From Fervidicoccaceae archaeon (GTDB lineage: Archaea; Thermoproteota; Thermoprotei_A; Sulfolobales; Fervidicoccaceae): DNA of 64,000 nt. Under the pieces are notes generated by a model. The model saw only the letters and a program-made list of their open reading frames with translations, had not been told where the DNA came from and ran no database searches. Shown here piece by piece: positions 567-10,842 of the stretch. Location: NCBI GenBank assembly GCA_038734945.1, contig JAVYOA010000001.1:1-64000 (forward strand), given 5' to 3'. Every line of letters begins with the position of its first letter. The stretch's first letter is position 1. A program made the translations under genes and the position numbers.

Positions 567-1526
567 ATGAGTGAGTTCCTCCTCGAAGTAGATAAGTTGA
601 GCATCAGTTATCTCATGGGAAAGAACAAGTTCAGGGCTCTGAAGAATATCAATATGAAAGTTAGGAGAGGAGAAGTAGTTGCGCTAGTTGGGGAGAGCGG
701 CTCAGGGAAAACTACCCTAATAAGGAGCATTATGAGGGTTCTACCAAAATCCGCAATCATTGAAGAAGGGAAAATTCTCTTTGAAGGCATCGACATTCTG
801 AAACTTAGTGAAGAGGAGATGCTGAAAATAAGAGGGAAAAAAATCACTATGGTCTTCCAAGATCCAGTGAGCCATCTAAATCCCGTCATGACTGTTAGAG
901 AGCAAATTGTGGAATCCCTGATGCTTCACAGAAGAATGACAGAAAAGGAGGCTGAGGAGGAGGCGCTCAGACTCCTATCGCTTATGCGCCTGAAAGATCC
1001 GAAAAGGGTTCTCTCCCTATATCCTCACCAGCTGAGCGGAGGGATGGCGCAGAGAGTGCTAATAGCAATGGCTCTCTCCAGCAATCCCTCAATGCTAATT
1101 GCAGATGAGCCTACTTCTGCTCTTGACCCAACAGTCCAGGTCAGGATTCTCTCCCTCTTGAAGGAGATTCACGAAAAGGAAAATCTGACTGTTTTGATTG
1201 TTACCCACGATCTCTCTGTTGTAGCGTACATGGCTGACTATGTTTATGTAATCTATGGCGGAAGGATTATGGAATCGGGAAATGTTTTTAGATTGTTTAA
1301 AAACCCAGTGCACCCCTATACTCGCGAGCTTCTGCTAAGCCTAAGCGGAAAAGCAAATGGAGAAAGTGCAAGAGCAATAAAAGAATTTTCTGAAGATGGA
1401 TGTCCATTTGCTCCAAGATGTCCACTTGCAGATGAAAAATGCGCTGCAGGCTTTCCTCCATATATTGAAATAGGAGATGGTCTGTATGCCTGCTACAATG
1501 CCGATAAGGGGGGATTTGTATCTTGA
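567..1526 (+). CDS. dppD: Oligopeptide/dipeptide ABC transporter ATP-binding protein
   Basis: GESGSGKT Walker A, LSGGMAQR signature, ADEPTSALD, HPYT and C-terminal Cys cluster (GCPFAPRCP...C...C). Confidence 0.92.
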   Translation: MSEFLLEVDKLSISYLMGKNKFRALKNINMKVRRGEVVALVGESGSGKTTLIRSIMRVLPKSAIIEEGKILFEGIDILKLSEEEMLKIRGKKITMVFQDPVSHLNPVMTVREQIVESLMLHRRMTEKEAEEEALRLLSLMRLKDPKRVLSLYPHQLSGGMAQRVLIAMALSSNPSMLIADEPTSALDPTVQVRILSLLKEIHEKENLTVLIVTHDLSVVAYMADYVYVIYGGRIMESGNVFRLFKNPVHPYTRELLLSLSGKANGESARAIKEFSEDGCPFAPRCPLADEKCAAGFPPYIEIGDGLYACYNADKGGFVS

Positions 1527-2503
1527 CCGGAAGCAAGGTTCTCCTTGAAGCCGTTCAGCTGAAAAAATACTTCAGGGAATCCTCGTTTCTTGGAAAAACT
1601 GTTAAAGTAACGAAAGCGGTGGATGGTGTGTCCTTCAATGTTGAGAGGGGTGAAAAATTCTGCGTAGTGGGGGAAAGCGGCTCGGGAAAAACTACTTTAG
1701 CAAGAATAGTTGCTGGACTGCTTGACTATGATGAGGGGGAGCTGAGGCTTGATGGAAAAAGCTATAGAGAGCTGTTGAAAAAGGATAGAAGAGGCTTTAG
1801 AAGAAAAGTGCAAATAATATTTCAGGATCCCTATTCTGCCACCAATCCAAGAAAGAGCGTAAGAGAGATACTTGAGAGACCTCTTAAACTGCATGGCATA
1901 GAGCACACAGAAGAAGATCTGCTCCGCCTGCTGGAATCCGTAGGTCTAGCTCCAGCCAGCGAAATCATTAATAGAATGCCTTGGGAGCTCAGTGGAGGGC
2001 AGAGGCAGAGGCTGTTCATTGCAAGAGCACTGTCACTGAACCCTGAGCTGCTTGTAGCAGATGAGCCTGTATCGATGCTTGATGTTACAGTAAGAGCTCA
2101 GATTCTCACTCTCCTGAATAGGCTATACAGAGAAAGGAAGATGTCGATAATGCTCATATCGCACGACATGCTTACTGTCAATGCTTTCTGCGACAGAGTA
2201 GCTGTAATGTATCTGGGAAAGTTCGTGGAAGTGGGGAAAGCAGAGGAGCTGTATTCCCATCCAATTCATCCATATACAGAGCTTCTCGTAAGCTCAACGC
2301 TCAAACCAAATCCGGAGGAGAGAGAGAAAATTGAGCTGCGTGAGAAGGATGAAGCCTCAGCTATTCCATCCATAGGATGCAGATTCTACCCAAGATGCCT
2401 GTATGCTATTGAAAAGTGCGCAAAGGAGGAGCCCGATCTCCTTGAGGTATTACCTGGAAGACTTTCTGCTTGTCATGTTAGAAATGGGGGTAAAGTAAAG
2501 TGA
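1523..2503 (+). CDS. dppF: Oligopeptide/dipeptide ABC transporter ATP-binding protein
   Basis: GESGSGKT, LSGGQRQR, ADEPVSMLD, GCRFYPRC; 4-bp overlap with the upstream gene. Confidence 0.92.
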   Translation: MTGSKVLLEAVQLKKYFRESSFLGKTVKVTKAVDGVSFNVERGEKFCVVGESGSGKTTLARIVAGLLDYDEGELRLDGKSYRELLKKDRRGFRRKVQIIFQDPYSATNPRKSVREILERPLKLHGIEHTEEDLLRLLESVGLAPASEIINRMPWELSGGQRQRLFIARALSLNPELLVADEPVSMLDVTVRAQILTLLNRLYRERKMSIMLISHDMLTVNAFCDRVAVMYLGKFVEVGKAEELYSHPIHPYTELLVSSTLKPNPEEREKIELREKDEASAIPSIGCRFYPRCLYAIEKCAKEEPDLLEVLPGRLSACHVRNGGKVK

Positions 2504-3477
2504 AAAAGTTCACATTGTTCGTGCTCAAGAGATTCATAGCTGCTGTGTTGGTCATAGTTGCTGTGGTGCTCATTTCATTTTTTGTTATAAATTTAGCTCC
2601 AGGTAATCCCGCAGTTATGCTTGCAGGTGAAGCAGCTTCCCCCGAATACATAAAGGAAATAGAAAAAGCATATGGATTCGATAAGCCGATAGAGGAAAGG
2701 CTGGTCATATACCTTGAACGTCTCTTTGTAGGGGATTGGGGATATTCTACATATTATCAAGCACCTGTGTTGAGTGCAATTTTGAACAGGCTTCCCGCAA
2801 CTCTTCTGCTTATGCTGACCGCTCTGACTATTGCTATTTTTGCAGGGGTATATCTAGGTGCAATCACTGCTGGGAGGGCATTCACAAAGTTAGATACTGT
2901 GATCAACTATCTTGGTCTGGTGTTCTATTCATTTCCAGCATATTGGTTAGCTCTATTGCTTGTGCTTCTCTTCTCCCTATATGTTCCTCTCTTTCCAACG
3001 GGAGGTATAATTGATATAGGGATTGAAGGAGTTTTCCAAAAAGTAATCAATGTGCTTTGGCACATGGTCCTTCCAGTTTCTACCTTGGCGCTCATATTCA
3101 TGGCCTCATATTTGAGGCTAACAAGGTCTGTAATGATTGATGTCCTTTCCTCGAACTACATATTCACAGCCATAGCAAAGGGATTGCCGAGGAAAAGAAT
3201 AATTTTCAAACATGCTTTGAGGAACGCTCTAATTCCAGTAATCGCCATGGCTGGAACTCAATTCGGTCAGGTCATTGCTGGGGCTGTGCTTACAGAAACG
3301 ATATTCTCTTGGCCTGGAATTGGGTCGCTTCTAATTCAGGCAGTTACCTTTAGGGATTATCCGCTTGTGATCGGCATTTTCATAATGACTGCTATTGCTA
3401 CCTCTGTATCGAATTTTGTTGCTGACATACTCATGGCGAGGGTTGATCCAAGAGTTAGAGCTAAGTTGATGGGGTGA
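2500..3477 (+). CDS. dppB: Peptide ABC transporter permease (DppB/OppB type)
   Basis: LAPGNPA, RLPATLLL, EAA-like loop TAIAKGL..KHALRNALIP, ETIFSWPGIG, C-terminal DPRV. Confidence 0.92.
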   Translation: MKKFTLFVLKRFIAAVLVIVAVVLISFFVINLAPGNPAVMLAGEAASPEYIKEIEKAYGFDKPIEERLVIYLERLFVGDWGYSTYYQAPVLSAILNRLPATLLLMLTALTIAIFAGVYLGAITAGRAFTKLDTVINYLGLVFYSFPAYWLALLLVLLFSLYVPLFPTGGIIDIGIEGVFQKVINVLWHMVLPVSTLALIFMASYLRLTRSVMIDVLSSNYIFTAIAKGLPRKRIIFKHALRNALIPVIAMAGTQFGQVIAGAVLTETIFSWPGIGSLLIQAVTFRDYPLVIGIFIMTAIATSVSNFVADILMARVDPRVRAKLMG

Positions 3478-3486
3478 AAATGAGAC

Positions 3487-4317
3487 ATGAAGATCGGAAC
3501 AAAGCTTTCGGCTCTTGCTAAGCCAAGGAATCTCTTTCCTGCTGCCATTCTAGCAGTTGTCTTCATATTTGCAGTGTTCGCTGAGTTCATAGCTCCATAT
3601 CCGCCTCTAAAGACGGGGGTAGGTCCTGTTCTTTCCCCGCCATCGCTAACTTATCTGATGGGCACCGACCAAGTTGGCTCTGATATATTCAGTCAGGTTG
3701 TATATGGAAGTAGAACAGCGCTATATGTAGGCTTTCTATCTGGATTCATTGGTCTCGCCACAGCTCTTCTTCTTGGTTTACTTTCCGGTTACTATGGAAA
3801 GATGATTGATATGATAGTCATGAGAATCGTTGATCTTTTCCTCTCAATTCCTGTCTTCGTTTTCATGATAGTGCTGCTTGTAGTTTTTGGAAGCAATATT
3901 AACAATATAGCCCTGATTCTAGGTTTCTTTTCATGGCCTCTCATGACTAGGGTTGTTAGGTCACAAACGCTTTCAATTTCTGAGAAGGAATTCGTTGCTG
4001 CTGCCAAATCAATAGGAGAGAGGGATCTATATATATTGTTCAGGGAGATACTCCCAAACGTGTGGCCCTCGGTCATTCCCCTCTTCATGATGACAGTTAG
4101 CGGGAACATAGTAGCAGAGAGCGGAATAAGCTTTCTGGGATTGGGAGACCCGAACATTGCAAGCTGGGGAAAAACCTTGGCAATGGCCAGCAGAGCTTTC
4201 TATGCTGGATCATGGTGGGGAATCTTTTTTCCAGGATTGGTCCTAACTCTGACAATAGTATCACTGAATTTGATCAGTGACTATATTGTTAGCATCTTAA
4301 CCAGAACAGAAAAGTAA
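3487..4317 (+). CDS. dppC: Peptide ABC transporter permease (DppC/OppC type)
   Basis: MGTDQVGSDIFSQVVYG, EFVAAAKSIG, ISFLGLGDP..SWG motifs. Confidence 0.92.
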   Translation: MKIGTKLSALAKPRNLFPAAILAVVFIFAVFAEFIAPYPPLKTGVGPVLSPPSLTYLMGTDQVGSDIFSQVVYGSRTALYVGFLSGFIGLATALLLGLLSGYYGKMIDMIVMRIVDLFLSIPVFVFMIVLLVVFGSNINNIALILGFFSWPLMTRVVRSQTLSISEKEFVAAAKSIGERDLYILFREILPNVWPSVIPLFMMTVSGNIVAESGISFLGLGDPNIASWGKTLAMASRAFYAGSWWGIFFPGLVLTLTIVSLNLISDYIVSILTRTEK

Positions 4318-4441
4318 GCTGACCTCATCTTGTCCAGAGAAGAGGCTTTTTGGTTTGAAATACAGCAATTTAACTTTTTGTCTAAAAAAGTTCCGACAGT
4401 TTTTTAAGCAGATTCGGAAATGATGAACTTTGGTGGAAAAA

Positions 4442-4693
4442 ATGAGCGATGATGAGACTTATGTTGAGCTTTACGGAGAGCTCATATCGCTTAAGGAGCT
4501 TGCGATCTCCTCACTTATCTCAACAGTTCTAGCATTTGCCCTCTATTACATCTCTCCATATGCAGCTCAAGTGCTGGGGATGCCTAATTTGGCTAGTGCC
4601 TTGAAGATAACCCTTGGTGCAATAGGAGCCAGCATAGGCTTCTTCCTATCGGTGCCTATAACCAGGGTAAAGAGGGTGATTGAGGAGGATTGA
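4442..4693 (+). CDS. Small two-TM membrane protein, partner of the TctA-like permease
   Basis: 83 aa from ATG 4442 (track starts at TTG 4430); two hydrophobic helices; 4-bp overlap with the next gene. Confidence 0.7.
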   Translation: MSDDETYVELYGELISLKELAISSLISTVLAFALYYISPYAAQVLGMPNLASALKITLGAIGASIGFFLSVPITRVKRVIEED

Positions 4694-6063
4694 TCGTGGA
4701 CGCTGTTCTATTTGCCCAAGCAGCTTTGCTGTCTGTCGTTTCCTCAGTGATATATATTTTTATAGGGATTTTGCCTGGAACAGATGAAACTGCTACTATG
4801 GCCCCGATAGCTTTGGCATTAATGCTGGCTGGGCTCGATCCTCTGCTCGTTCTCGCGTGGTTCATGGCATCGATAGTTGCTTTCAAGATAGGTGATGCTG
4901 TTCCTGTCGCCCTAGCAGGAATACCTGGTGGTGTCATGGCTGTCCCTCAGGTTCCAGATGCTCTTGTTGCTAAGGAAAACGGGCTCGCTGATGCACTGCT
5001 CAGAAAGGGAAATGCTGCTGCCCTTATTTCCTCCATTGTTGTAACTCTCTTTGTCCTTGGTGTTTCATACGCTATAATGCCTATAGGAGCCTGGCTGAAC
5101 TCTCAGGACATAGTCCTTGGAGTGAAAGTATACAGGTGGTTCTGGCTAATCCTTGTTGGAGTCATAATACTAGCATTAACATCAAAAAACAAATGGCTCT
5201 CTGTATTGATGATACCATCATTTGCCATACTTGTACAGGGAGTGAGGGGGGTATACGGGAAAACCGTCTCGATAAGCCTTTTCCTTGGAATAACCATCGG
5301 CCCAATGTTATTTGAGCTGTTCAGAGCTCTGAACAAGGAGCTGAGAAAGCGGATGGAAAAGAGAGGAGTAAAAGAAGTCAGGCTGGCAAAGATAGGAAAG
5401 ATTTCGCTCAATCCCTTATCTCATATAAATAAGGAAGAGCTGCTGCATGTGCTGATATGGTCTCCGTTGTCTTCTGTTCTTGCGACAGTCATGTCTCCTG
5501 TGGGACTTACAATACTAATAGGAGACACGCTAAGAGAAACCAAGAAGGACAGGCTTCAGGGATCACTTCTTGCTTATACAGTTAGAGAAGGGGTCAAGTT
5601 GGGGACATATGTAGGAGGGACCTTGATACCCCTATTGGTGATTGGGGCTGCTACAGGTCCGATGAGTGCTGGCCCTGCCGCTCCATTCTTCCAGACAATC
5701 CAGAGCATTGGAATGCAGCCCTACAAATACATTCTATCTCACTACAGTTATGGGGAAGTTGCTGCTATGATTCTCTTCTCCGTTATCATATCCTTGCTTG
5801 TCGCATATCCTCTAATCGTTAAATACTCCAGGTCTCTAACTCTTCTGGTCTTCAGAAAGGTTTCCGCCGAAGCTCTGTATGGGCTGTTTATTGCCATAGT
5901 TCTCCTGCTCGCTTACTATGATGCTGGAATTCCCGGAATATTTGGAATGCTCCTGGTATCGTTGATATCTGGAACTTTGAGCACATTAGGAGTATCTCTC
6001 GGTGTGCTCTTCATGGTATTAGTTGGAGCCCCAACTATATCTGCCCTTTTGGCAGCCCTGTGA
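4690..6063 (+). CDS. Tripartite tricarboxylate transporter TctA-family (DUF112-like) permease
   Basis: 457-aa polytopic membrane protein with the TctA-type N-terminal motif IGILPG and a later AGIPGG motif. Confidence 0.7.
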   Translation: MIVDAVLFAQAALLSVVSSVIYIFIGILPGTDETATMAPIALALMLAGLDPLLVLAWFMASIVAFKIGDAVPVALAGIPGGVMAVPQVPDALVAKENGLADALLRKGNAAALISSIVVTLFVLGVSYAIMPIGAWLNSQDIVLGVKVYRWFWLILVGVIILALTSKNKWLSVLMIPSFAILVQGVRGVYGKTVSISLFLGITIGPMLFELFRALNKELRKRMEKRGVKEVRLAKIGKISLNPLSHINKEELLHVLIWSPLSSVLATVMSPVGLTILIGDTLRETKKDRLQGSLLAYTVREGVKLGTYVGGTLIPLLVIGAATGPMSAGPAAPFFQTIQSIGMQPYKYILSHYSYGEVAAMILFSVIISLLVAYPLIVKYSRSLTLLVFRKVSAEALYGLFIAIVLLLAYYDAGIPGIFGMLLVSLISGTLSTLGVSLGVLFMVLVGAPTISALLAAL

Positions 6064-6074
6064 GGTAACCGGAA

Positions 6075-7073
6075 ATGAGGGTTTCAGCATCCGCTCCTGG
6101 AAAAGTAACGCTGTTTGGAGAGCATGCTGTTGTCTACGGATATCCAGCACTGGTAGTTGCAATAGAAAAGCGGGTACATGCTACAGCAGAATCCAGAAAT
6201 GATAATGTAATAAAGATAAGTGCTCGAGATCTCAGAGTTCCAGGCATTGTGATTTCCTATATAGGAAACGAAGTTGTGCTGGAGACTGACTATGGAATGG
6301 TTCTTCCCGCTATAGCTTATATAAATAAGGCAATTGAGCTAACTTCCAGATACTTAGGAATTAAGAAGGGCATAAACATAGAGATAAAGTCGGAAATGCC
6401 GGTGGGAGCTGGTCTGGGAACATCAGCAGCAGTAGCTATCTCTACCATAGCAGCATATGCAGCTGTCAACGGCTATGAATTGAGCAGGGAGGAAATAGCT
6501 AAAATTGGATGGGACGTTGAAAAGGAGGTGCAGGGAATTGCTTCTCCCATGGATACATCCATAACATCAATTGGAGGATACTTGAAGATAAAATTTGAGA
6601 GGGATAATGTTGAGAGGCTACCTATTAAGGTAAATAGAGAGCTTCCTCTCATAATAGGTTATGTAGAGAGGGAGGCCAAGACAAGGGATATGGTTGCAAT
6701 GGTTAAGGAAAGAATGACTCAATATCCGGAAATATACGAGAGCATTATGAGGCTAATAGGAACTGTGGTCAATAGAGCTGAGCTCTCTCTAGAAAAGGGC
6801 GATTTAAGGGAGCTCGGCTTTCTCATGAATTTGAATCACTCCCTCCTAGATGCCCTGGGAGTTTCAACCAGGAGACTCAATGAACTGGTTCATGTAGCAA
6901 AGGACTCCGGAGCCTATGGAGCAAAGCTAACCGGTGCTGGAGGAGGCGGCTGTGTTATTGCTCTTGTTCCAGAAAAGCAGGAGATAGTTGAAACTTCGAT
7001 GAAGCTTCACGGTTCCTTAGTAATCAGAACAAAGCTAGGAGCGGAGGGCGTCAGAGTTGATTCTGTGGAATGA
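6075..7073 (+). CDS. mvk: Mevalonate kinase
   Basis: GHMP motifs APGKVTLFGEHAVVYG, PVGAGLGTSAA, SPMDT, AKLTGAGGGG. Confidence 0.93.
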   Translation: MRVSASAPGKVTLFGEHAVVYGYPALVVAIEKRVHATAESRNDNVIKISARDLRVPGIVISYIGNEVVLETDYGMVLPAIAYINKAIELTSRYLGIKKGINIEIKSEMPVGAGLGTSAAVAISTIAAYAAVNGYELSREEIAKIGWDVEKEVQGIASPMDTSITSIGGYLKIKFERDNVERLPIKVNRELPLIIGYVEREAKTRDMVAMVKERMTQYPEIYESIMRLIGTVVNRAELSLEKGDLRELGFLMNLNHSLLDALGVSTRRLNELVHVAKDSGAYGAKLTGAGGGGCVIALVPEKQEIVETSMKLHGSLVIRTKLGAEGVRVDSVE

Positions 7074-7113
7074 GGATCTCTAAAATAAAATGTGCAGGAC
7101 AAAGCTGTGGTAT

Positions 7114-7803
7114 CTACTGAAGCTTGGAGAGGATTTGCGGGAGCTCCGTCAAAGCTCGCACTATGACTGCTTTTTTTCCTATATGTATTGCTCTCTCAAC
7201 TTCTCTCCTTATAAGTACAGCAGAGACCCCCGAGAGTAGGGCCCCAGCCAGATCATTTTCGAGGGAATCGCCTATGTGCACTAGGTCCTCCACCTTGCAG
7301 TTCAATCTCTCAGCTATTGCCTCGAAAGCCCTCTTGTCCGGCTTCTGGACTCCTGCTTCATCGGAGAACAGGGAAGCATCGAAATATTCGAGGAGATCAT
7401 TTCTCTCGAGTATATACCTGGTTACCATTCCTGGCCAGAACATGACGTTTCCCAAGAGCCCCATCCTATAGCCGAGCCCCTTCAGCTCTCTGACTGCGAT
7501 CTTGGCATCCTCAAAGGCCAGCTCTTCTATCTCTCTCTTCCTTAGAATTCTGACAAAAGCTCTGAAGAGCTCCTCCTCGCTCATTCCGAGCTCCTTGGAA
7601 AAGACCGCAGCTGAATCCAGGATGGGGCTCCTGAATGCTCCTTCTAGCCTCAGAGCAAGTGCTTTCCGGTAAGCTGAAAGAAGGAGATCTCTCACTTCGT
7701 TGGCATCCCTACTGTAGGATTCAGAGATCTCTTCCGATAAGAGCGAGTAAAGCTTTTCCAGATCCAATAGGGTATTCCATATATCAAATGAAAGACATTT
7801 CAA
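7114..7803 (-). CDS. HAD-superfamily hydrolase
   Basis: Motif I FDIWNTL, QKPD, motif IV HIGDSLENDLAGA. Confidence 0.85.
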   Translation of the reverse strand: MKCLSFDIWNTLLDLEKLYSLLSEEISESYSRDANEVRDLLLSAYRKALALRLEGAFRSPILDSAAVFSKELGMSEEELFRAFVRILRKREIEELAFEDAKIAVRELKGLGYRMGLLGNVMFWPGMVTRYILERNDLLEYFDASLFSDEAGVQKPDKRAFEAIAERLNCKVEDLVHIGDSLENDLAGALLSGVSAVLIRREVERAIHIGKKAVIVRALTELPQILSKLQ

Positions 7804-7818
7804 GGGGCTCCCCTTTCA

Positions 7819-8925
7819 TCAACGAACATTTTTTGTTCCATATCTGCTTATAAATTCGTCCAACATTCTTTTTGCCTCAAATGGAGACTGCACTGGCTTG
7901 GGAGGATGCTTCATGTAGTAGGCGCTGGCCTCCTGAATGGGACCAGAAAGTCCATTGTCCAGTGCAACCTTGGCCAGCCTTATCAGATCCATCATCGCTG
8001 CAGCATACATGCTCTTGTCATCTACCTTGAGCTTTACATCGAGCTCAACCGGGAATCCCAGAAATGATGTTGCCTTTATATAGATGTAAGCAATTTTTGT
8101 GTTCCCTAAGAATGGTACCCAGTCGCTGGGGCCTATTCTGATTCTCTTGGACTGAATTATCTCTGTTGGATTCTTGAGCGTGTGTGCTACAGCACTGGTT
8201 TTGCTCTCCCTCTTGCTCATCAGCCTCTCCTCTTCTTTCATATTCAAGAAATCTGTGTTTCCTCCTATGTTCAGCTGATAAGTTTCATTGACTGTTAGCC
8301 CCCTTTCTCTCATGAGAGCGGTCAGCGAAGAGTGAAGTATGGTAGCACCAAACTGTCCCTTTATGTCATCGCCGAGAAGAGGCAAGCCTGCTCTCCTGTA
8401 CTTTTCCTGCCATTCTCCCTTTGGATCGCTAGCAATGAAGACAGGCATACCATTTATGAAGGCTGCCCCTGCTCTTAAGGCTGCCTCTGCATAAAATCTA
8501 GTTGCTTCCTCGGATCCTACTGGAAGCATGTTTATTATTATTTCTGCCCCTGAACTCTTCATGGCAGCTACAATTTCATCCATTGTTATATTTCTTCCGT
8601 GCGGCATGAAGATATCTCTCATGTGCTCCGCTACACCATCAAGGACTGGGCCTGCAATGACCTTCACTCCAGTCTTCGTATCGTCGATAAGTCTTGGAAA
8701 GATGTTTGGTCCTTCGAATATAGCTTCCCCAAGATCTCTGTTTATTTTTCTCACATCTACATCTATGGCCAAGACGAAGTCTATGTCCTGTATTTTATAT
8801 CCGCCAATTTCTTCATAGAGAAGCTCTCTAGTTCTGCTCGGTTCCTTTTTAGAAAGAAGCACCCCCTGCACTATTGCTGAAGCGCAATTTCCTATTCCTA
8901 TTAGACCAACTTTGATTTTTCCCAT
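7819..8925 (-). CDS. ino1: myo-Inositol-1-phosphate synthase
   Basis: GIGNCAS, LPVGS, GDDIKGQFGAT, YQLNIGGNTDFLNM, SKRESKT, YMKHPP. ATG 8925 preferred over GTG 8934. Confidence 0.93.
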   Translation of the reverse strand: MGKIKVGLIGIGNCASAIVQGVLLSKKEPSRTRELLYEEIGGYKIQDIDFVLAIDVDVRKINRDLGEAIFEGPNIFPRLIDDTKTGVKVIAGPVLDGVAEHMRDIFMPHGRNITMDEIVAAMKSSGAEIIINMLPVGSEEATRFYAEAALRAGAAFINGMPVFIASDPKGEWQEKYRRAGLPLLGDDIKGQFGATILHSSLTALMRERGLTVNETYQLNIGGNTDFLNMKEEERLMSKRESKTSAVAHTLKNPTEIIQSKRIRIGPSDWVPFLGNTKIAYIYIKATSFLGFPVELDVKLKVDDKSMYAAAMMDLIRLAKVALDNGLSGPIQEASAYYMKHPPKPVQSPFEAKRMLDEFISRYGTKNVR

Positions 8926-9006
8926 GGCTCTCACGTATAAATTTTTTTATATGAAACTGCATTTGATTTTCTTGGTCCAATTAAAAAACTTTTTCAGGGG
9001 AAAAAA

Positions 9007-10353: not shown

Positions 10354-10842
10354 TTATTCTTCAATCGCTTCGCGATCATAAGGCTTTCCGAGAGATGCTG
10401 GCATCTCAGCCCTTCTCGACGTGTAAATTAGAATTGCCAAAGTCACAATAAATGGGAGCATAAAGAGGAGCTGGTATGGAATATTTATCTCCATGGCTTG
10501 GAGCGTGTAAACCAAAACCTCAACTCCAGCAAATAGAAGTGAGCCAAAGAGTATAGGGAGAGGACTCCATTTCCCAAAGATTGTTATAGCTATTGAAATC
10601 CATCCTCTTCCACTAACTATTGTATTTGTATAGATTCCCGTGAATCCAAGAGCTAGATAAGCACCAGCTAAACCCATTAAAGAGCTTCCTAATAGAGTGA
10701 ATAGGTGCCTCATTAGGAAAACATTGATGCCTAAAGCATCTGCTGCTCTTGGGTTCTCTCCAATGCTCCTCAGCTTGAGGCCTATGGGTGTGCGAAATAA
10801 GATGTAATGGGTTATTTTAGCTATAGTGTTTGTAATATACAT
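10354..10842 (-). pseudogene. 5'-truncated nucleoside/sugar ABC permease (BPD_transp_2-like) fragment
   Basis: Only the C-terminal ~150 aa are present (RTPIGLKLRSIGENPRAADALGINV...GRGWISIA...PASLGKPY); N-terminal TM helices are missing and no partner genes are adjacent. Confidence 0.7.

Follow-up and report, generated by a model that had tools for sequence, protein, structure and literature searches.

Which substrate would a pair of membrane proteins carry, and in which direction, when their genes lie directly in front of a mevalonate kinase gene? This question is raised by positions 4442-7073 of a 64,000-nucleotide (nt) stretch of DNA from a Fervidicoccaceae archaeon (contig JAVYOA010000001.1; the whole stretch is hereafter called the window), where genes for a small membrane protein, a permease resembling TctA of the tripartite tricarboxylate transporters (TTT) and a mevalonate kinase (Mvk, encoded by mvk) follow one another. 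A preliminary description had proposed that the first two form a two-subunit importer delivering external mevalonate to Mvk. Strong comparative-genomic evidence from both domains supported this proposal, with the qualifications that uptake would serve salvage and that, among archaea, one clade alone shows the link to mvk. We consider it probable that the archaeal pair imports mevalonate, and import is rated higher for the relatives of the pair in Bacillota. The broader claim, that the TctA-like permease and its two-helix partner constitute the first natural mevalonate transporter family, distributed over hyperthermophilic archaea and Bacillota, is one towards which we lean only slightly.

The three genes are co-directional, as described beforehand, and both open reading frames (ORFs) and profile searches confirmed them. 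The features of the locus are as follows:

4374-4409 (approximately), + strand: block conserved upstream of the genes, including the TATA-like box TTTTTTAA (4400-4407); probable promoter of all three genes
4442-4693, + strand: small subunit of 83 amino acids (aa), ATG start; translated ORF of no named family
4696-6063 (from 4690 if the start is TTG), + strand: divergent TctA-family permease; PF01970 at 57.4 bits
6062-6066, + strand: GAGGT, Shine-Dalgarno-like; overlaps the TGA stop codon of the permease gene and lies 8 nt before the ATG of mvk
6075-7073, + strand: mevalonate kinase of 332 aa; TIGR00549 at 256 bits, with GHMP domains

A Divergent TctA-like Permease and a Small Membrane Partner

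The match of the permease to PF01970 (TctA; cut-off, 28.9 bits) covers profile positions 3-418 of 423, and no NCBIfam model was matched. The protein is 455 aa long when read from GTG 4696 or 457 aa when read from TTG 4690, carries the motifs GILPGTDETATMAPI and SPVGLT, and is encoded by the sole PF01970 gene of the genome, whose assembly is 1.34 Mb in size and 99.95% complete. Residues P29, G30, D32, E33, T34 and A35 as well as P270, V271, G272 and T274 were invariant in 17 sequences. The absence of an adjacent TctC gene, stated in the preliminary description, extends to the whole genome, in which neither PF03401 (TctC) nor PF07331 (TctB) found a match; furthermore, no TctC-like cluster recurs among 84 clustered loci. 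We use the term mevalonate-linked TctA-like subfamily for a group defined in the present analysis. Specifically, the window permease shows full-length identities of 36-41% to the Bacillota members and the motifs PG(T)DET.A and P-V-G-.-T, its gene follows that of a two-helix partner with a K-x-K-R tail, and a gene for a mevalonate-converting enzyme is adjacent (mvk, 11 nt).

The kinase scored well above the TIGR00549 cut-off of 163 bits, with 70 bits for PF00288 and 57 bits for PF08544, and is the only over-cut-off mevalonate kinase in the whole genome.

The permease was modeled with a predicted local distance difference test (pLDDT) score of 86.4 and a predicted template modeling (pTM) score of 0.86. 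Foldseek returned nothing at E ≤ 0.001 with this model. In a wide structural search, the top match was the OPT-family protein YS1 (Z 14.2, 282 residues aligned, root-mean-square deviation 6.9), followed by weaker matches (Z 5.5-7.4) to Pho90, LaINDY, DiT1, VcINDY, ArsB, IseQM and SiaQM. Such matches hint at an elevator-type carrier, short of a fold assignment; note that Z values of this size in helical proteins may mirror a common helix arrangement only.

The small protein has an acidic N-terminus, two predicted membrane helices and a basic K-x-K-R tail. No Pfam family was matched by it or by its bacterial counterparts, and its Atlas clusters are all labeled "hypothetical protein". In an alignment (A2) of 32 rows from Archaea and Bacillota, G62, F67, K77 and R78 were invariant. 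The small gene lies immediately 5' of the permease gene in 77 of the 84 clustered loci; at five of the remaining seven (L025, L027, L028, L036 and L037) it was recovered by tblastn, and at the last two (L030 and L078) tblastn gave a truncated or weak match only. This arrangement exceeds chance.

Co-folding of the two membrane proteins, a check put forward in the preliminary description, gave a median interface score (ipSAE) of 0.66 over 3 runs, while the best of 3 controls scored 0.00, which supports the prediction that they bind each other as two subunits. Among solved complexes, 116 of 157 reached this ipSAE mark, as did 2 of 215 mismatched pairs; these counts are only rough here because custom alignments were used. 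The runs shared at least 93% of contacts, with a pLDDT of at least 76 for the small partner. On the permease side, the predicted contacts map to residues 29-48 beside the PGTDET motif, the loop 222-234 and residues 385-410. A sequence-profile search for solved relatives gave 0 matches at E ≤ 1, so that a co-fold score arising from a memorized structure is unlikely.

Mevalonate Genes Adjoin the Pair in Many Bacillota

A wider scan yielded 299 confirmed relatives, the best 80 of which (50 from Bacillota and 30 archaeal) were examined. ORFs were called in each locus and clustered, and the cluster representatives were annotated. The 50 Bacillota permeases are 36-41% identical to that of the window. 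Enrichment of mevalonate-pathway genes around homologues had been named as the test of the proposal, and mevalonate kinase and other lower-pathway genes, or the gene for 3-hydroxy-3-methylglutaryl-CoA (HMG-CoA) reductase, indeed adjoin 28 of these 50 best loci. At 18 loci, the pair lies within or beside mvaK1-mvaD-mvaK2-fni in one of three gene orders; in the locus L055, for example, the four products scored 259, 359, 318 and 405 bits, respectively, all above cut-offs. At 10 loci, the pair lies directly downstream of HMG-CoA reductase, usually behind a sigma-54 activator. Of the other Bacillota loci, 17 lack an adjacent mevalonate gene, and five are short or different. The preliminary description had mentioned similar pairs beside a degradative HMG-CoA reductase in bacteria; this was borne out, a representative of the reductases matching TIGR00532 at 457 bits.

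We then compared these neighborhoods with the gene content of the respective genomes. Among the 18 genomes with lower-pathway loci, 15 (two of them complete chromosomes) encode DXR and Mvk and no HMG-CoA reductase, and 3 encode the reductase and no DXR; of five such genomes searched for HMG-CoA synthase, one had a match above the cut-off, and this genome has the reductase as well. A lower pathway without the upper one needs mevalonate from outside. Among the 10 genomes with reductase-linked loci, five encode DXR and no Mvk, with the neighbor of the transporter as their sole reductase, four have two reductases and Mvk and no DXR, and one has the reductase and DXR with Mvk encoded elsewhere. A lone reductase in an organism of the methylerythritol phosphate (MEP) pathway would be the entry to catabolism of imported mevalonate. 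Altogether, the reductase or Mvk is encoded in 49 of the 50 Bacillota genomes; the one that encodes neither is a metagenome-assembled genome. The only metabolite common to mevalonate kinase and HMG-CoA reductase is mevalonate.

Co-occurrence was also counted in 151 genomes drawn evenly from the family of one Sporosarcina and chosen independently of the feature counted. The transporter was present in 22 genomes, HMG-CoA reductase in 17 and Mvk in 5; the reductase and Mvk genomes were disjoint and together were exactly the 22 transporter genomes, and neither enzyme was found in the other 129, counts that are descriptive, carry no statistical test and overstate independence since the genomes are related. 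The enzyme gene was adjacent in 18 of 20 loci inspected out of 23, and adjacency at the G197 locus, outside the 20, was shown by coordinates. Fifteen of the 18 come from a further clade, whose members share 38-39% identity with the Sporosarcina protein and 31-33% with that of the window; in this clade, the transporter lies ~450 bp behind a reductase.

Archaeal Relatives

Within the same order, the permease was found in 7 of 41 genomes, with the small gene directly upstream in all seven and a GHMP kinase/mvk gene directly 3' in six. In all 7 archaeal loci with mvk downstream, the distance between the permease gene and mvk ranged from -14 to +11 nt. In three genomes of one family (f7), the permease shares 67-68% identity with that of the window and the kinase only 28-29%; this kinase is still an Mvk by TIGR00549 (237 bits). 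The flanking genes also differ between the two mvk-linked archaeal groups, whose kinase types are 28-31% identical. That the link spans two very different kinases argues for selection. In an 80-row tree, 7 of the 32 archaeal rows were mvk-linked, and all fell in one clade with 100% support in the approximate likelihood-ratio test (SH-aLRT). Note that this is a quick maximum-likelihood tree, the careful search not having finished, and that L009 (judged from its gene order to be identical with locus L034) and the permease ORFs of <400 aa (L035, L085 and L087) were left out. The archaeal mvk link is thus real and tight, and may have a single origin.

Two further observations concern the kinases of this order. 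G002, a genome of the same genus (98% complete), has neither the permease nor an over-cut-off mevalonate kinase (best match, 47.5 bits), which could be an assembly gap or a true loss of the whole block. In addition, Mvk types are ~30% identical even within one family (G005, G003 and G007 versus G004 and G006), a divergence suggestive of kinase replacement during the evolution of the order.

Proposed Function and Its Alternatives

Given the gene order, the protein families, the conserved pair, the link to mevalonate enzymes in both domains and the predicted complex described above, we propose the following scheme. The 83-aa protein and the TctA-like permease would form a secondary transporter that requires no binding protein and brings external mevalonate, a hydroxy-monocarboxylate, inward, presumably together with H+ or Na+. 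Mvk, whose gene starts 11 nt downstream and is probably co-transcribed, would phosphorylate and thereby trap mevalonate, and the product would feed archaeal isoprenoid lipid synthesis. Every imported molecule would spare the cell three acetyl-CoA and two reductions. What we infer in this scheme is the substrate, the transport direction, the coupling ion and the co-transcription.

The preliminary description had asked whether the genome lacks HMG-CoA reductase or synthase. It does not, as both are encoded, including an archaeal HMG-CoA synthase. Mevalonate auxotrophy of the host was therefore rejected, and uptake would be salvage rather than rescue of an auxotroph.

Several observations, in addition to the relatedness of the sampled genomes, weigh against mevalonate import by the archaeal pair. 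With reductase and synthase both present, uptake is dispensable. The archaeal and bacterial proteins are only ~36-41% identical, so that the substrate may have changed between them. All archaeal loci with mvk fall into a single clade, and the link may accordingly be one historical event. In the wider scan, only 4 of the 30 archaeal loci carry an Mvk gene in their flanks; the other 26 have neighbors such as a glycoside hydrolase or a subtilisin-like protease, without a pathway link. Two loci in G192 and the loci in G070 and G083 lie far from the mvk of the genome. Furthermore, 17 of the 50 Bacillota loci (in Lentibacillus, Virgibacillus, Oceanobacillus and others) have no adjacent mevalonate gene. 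Finally, a CTATAT near 6037-6042, inside the permease gene, might belong to an internal mvk promoter.

Some of these points are what one would expect if the pair carried another carboxylate, for example one of the di- or tricarboxylates of classical TctA systems, and its position before mvk were an inherited accident: the protein is a TctA-family member, most archaeal loci have no Mvk gene nearby, those with mvk make up one clade, and the host has no need for external mevalonate. However, three separate clades (the archaeal one, the main Bacillota one and the further clade at 31-33% identity) are linked to mevalonate enzymes, the phyletic match in the Sporosarcina family is 22 of 22 versus 0 of 129, and the archaeal link persists across the two divergent kinase types with different flanks. 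We consider this explanation unlikely, and mevalonate remains the substrate that we favor.

The transported species might instead be a relative of mevalonate, either mevalonolactone or 3-hydroxy-3-methylglutarate. At the 17 Bacillota loci without an adjacent mevalonate gene, the transporter pair is followed by a metallo-β-lactamase (MBL)-fold hydrolase, which has lactonase-like NCBIfam matches below the cut-off, and in 8 of the 17 by an EstD-like esterase too; moreover, mevalonate lactonizes readily as a matter of general chemistry. These loci are L042, L046, L051, L062, L063, L065-L067, L070, L072, L073, L075, L077-L079, L081 and L088, and the hydrolase might be a mevalonolactone hydrolase. 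Sixteen of the 17 genomes are those of mevalonate-pathway organisms, with the reductase and Mvk and without DXR. On the other hand, only mevalonate is shared by the kinase-linked and reductase-linked contexts, no lactonase or CoA-transferase gene recurs in the lower-pathway or reductase operons, and TctA-family carriers are known for anions. Transport of such a relative is quite improbable in our judgment.

Since secondary carriers run both ways and the archaeon makes its own mevalonate, one could also envisage that the pair exports mevalonate, as an overflow valve or for sharing. This is very improbable for a system that, in 15 genomes, lies within a lower pathway without any reductase, leaving nothing to export, and whose reductase-linked operons with sigma-54 activators look catabolic.

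It is hardly credible, finally, that the permease is a natural-transformation protein like MMJJ_13030 of Methanococcus maripaludis, which acts with the OB (oligonucleotide/oligosaccharide-binding)-fold protein MMJJ_13020: a TctA-like protein and its upstream small membrane partner are essential in two methanogens according to PMC10133366, but the 83-aa partner in the window has no OB fold, and three euryarchaeal genomes carry two PF01970 genes each, one of the window type and a shorter one, the latter in L121 following an OB-fold-like protein (weak PF01336 match, E 5.5e-5) and aligning with the window protein at a non-significant BLASTP E of 0.007 over 47 residues. We thus rejected this candidate as a different subfamily, judged by a Thermococcus stand-in (L121:1486-2643) in place of the M. 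maripaludis protein itself. In that locus (L121:311-2643, genome G091), a 401-aa OB-fold-like protein gene overlaps the start of the 385-aa TctA-family gene, a pair matching the one reported as essential for transformation in methanogens.

If mevalonate import holds, the family would serve three lifestyles: salvage for archaeal lipids beside own synthesis, a mevalonate shunt in MEP bacteria with the lower pathway only, and growth on mevalonate via a degradative HMG-CoA reductase. It would account for the orphan lower mevalonate pathway in many MEP-pathway bacilli, establish mevalonate scavenging and catabolism in Bacillota, and imply that a lipid precursor from the environment is recycled by some archaea. 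Free mevalonate would then be exchanged among the members of microbial communities, also in hot springs. It would also give a function to a binding-protein-independent TTT branch along with a new small-subunit family, and provide a natural, compact two-gene importer useful for mevalonate feeding of engineered isoprenoid producers.

Sequence Signals and Neighboring Genes

The signals around the three genes were mostly as given in the preliminary description. The T-rich TATA-like box near 4400 lies ~38 nt before ATG 4442, and alignment with the upstream region of a locus from the same genus (L010) retains ACTTTTTGTCTAA..AGTTCCGACA.TT.TTTAA. The block at ~4374-4409 is the probable promoter of the unit. 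Directly before the box and inside the conserved block, a short inverted pair TGTC...GACA (TTTTTGTCTAAAAAAGTTCCGACAG) lies within 4374-4399 and could be a regulator site. A GGTGG at 4432-4436 lies 6 nt upstream of the small-gene ATG. The 11-nt gap before mvk (6064-6074) with its GAGGT was read directly in the sequence. The 4-bp overlap described for the first two genes, on the other hand, stands only with the TTG start at 4690; with GTG 4696 there is a 2-nt gap instead. The gene call in the sequence collection is 455 aa long (P0004), which places the start at GTG 4696, and GAGGAGGA at 4682-4689 suits GTG 4696 better than TTG 4690. Whichever start applies, the small gene and the permease gene are tightly coupled. 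Three metatranscriptome runs of the same study gave 0 reads on 3900-7500 at a sampling of ~3-5% of each run, a result that does not bear on expression or co-transcription.

Upstream of the locus, four Opp/Dpp-type ATP-binding cassette (ABC) genes (567-4317, + strand), encode two ATPases and then two permeases, and the last of them stops 125 nt short of the small gene; no binding-protein gene was noticed near them within the stretch inspected. Downstream of mvk, at 7114-8934 on the - strand, a gene for a haloacid dehalogenase (HAD)-family hydrolase adjoins that for inositol-1-phosphate synthase; together they would yield myo-inositol for lipids or solutes, and the same HAD gene also lies 3' of mvk in G001 and G004. 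Further on, a 162-aa ORF (10354-10842, - strand) aligns with a branched-chain amino-acid ABC permease over the C-terminal half alone (positions 144-262 of the 269 in the profile) and may be a truncated gene.

Comparison with Known Systems

Bacterial mevalonate uptake has long been known at the physiological level. Searches of the open full-text literature, which did not extend to TCDB, subscription journals or the supplements of preprints, turned up neither a gene for mevalonate transport in prokaryotes nor any connection of TctA with mevalonate. The source names of the homologues are "tripartite tricarboxylate transporter permease" or "hypothetical" throughout. According to PMC12405511, bacterial mevalonate import systems exist, but MCT1 F360C was the sole importer known, and a carrier from yeast needed to be evolved for this purpose. 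The mammalian MCT1 F360C and the evolved yeast JEN1 Y180C/G share the proposed substrate and direction with the pair described here; unlike it, they are laboratory mutants from unrelated carrier families.

The closest classical system is TctABC, the TTT-family citrate uptake system of Salmonella, with which the pair shares the TctA Pfam match, a small membrane partner encoded directly upstream and predicted to bind the permease, and the proposed role of a carboxylate carrier. However, the window permease reaches only 57 bits on Pfam and matches no NCBIfam model, the genome is without TctC, and the inferred substrate is a hydroxy-monocarboxylate. In addition, the small partner, with two helices and 80-110 aa, belongs to no family and is not TctB (PF07331), which has four helices. 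TRAP transporters (tripartite ATP-independent periplasmic; DctQM and SiaQM) likewise combine a large permease with a small membrane subunit, and the permease model aligns weakly with SiaQM, IseQM and the elevator carriers VcINDY, LaINDY and ArsB (Z 5.5-7.0), but no sequence relationship to any of them was detected, a binding protein is absent, and the best structural match is the OPT-family YS1 instead.

Among archaeal proteins, the arCOG04469 member MMJJ_13030 with its OB-fold partner MMJJ_13020 is alike in Pfam family, in its upstream membrane partner and in the lack of TctB and TctC. To judge by the Thermococcus stand-in, it nevertheless represents a separate, coexisting subfamily with another partner type. 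Its reported role is DNA uptake, as two methanogens require the TctA-like protein and the upstream OB-fold partner for natural transformation (PMC10133366). According to PMC5898192, the TctA genes of archaea (arCOG04469) mostly occur singly.

As for the catabolic side, a bacterial system offers a parallel. Pseudomonas mevalonii grows on mevalonate by means of mvaAB, which includes a degradative HMG-CoA reductase, and we know of no transporter gene for it. The reductase-linked Bacillota loci seem to follow the logic of mvaAB with a transporter attached.

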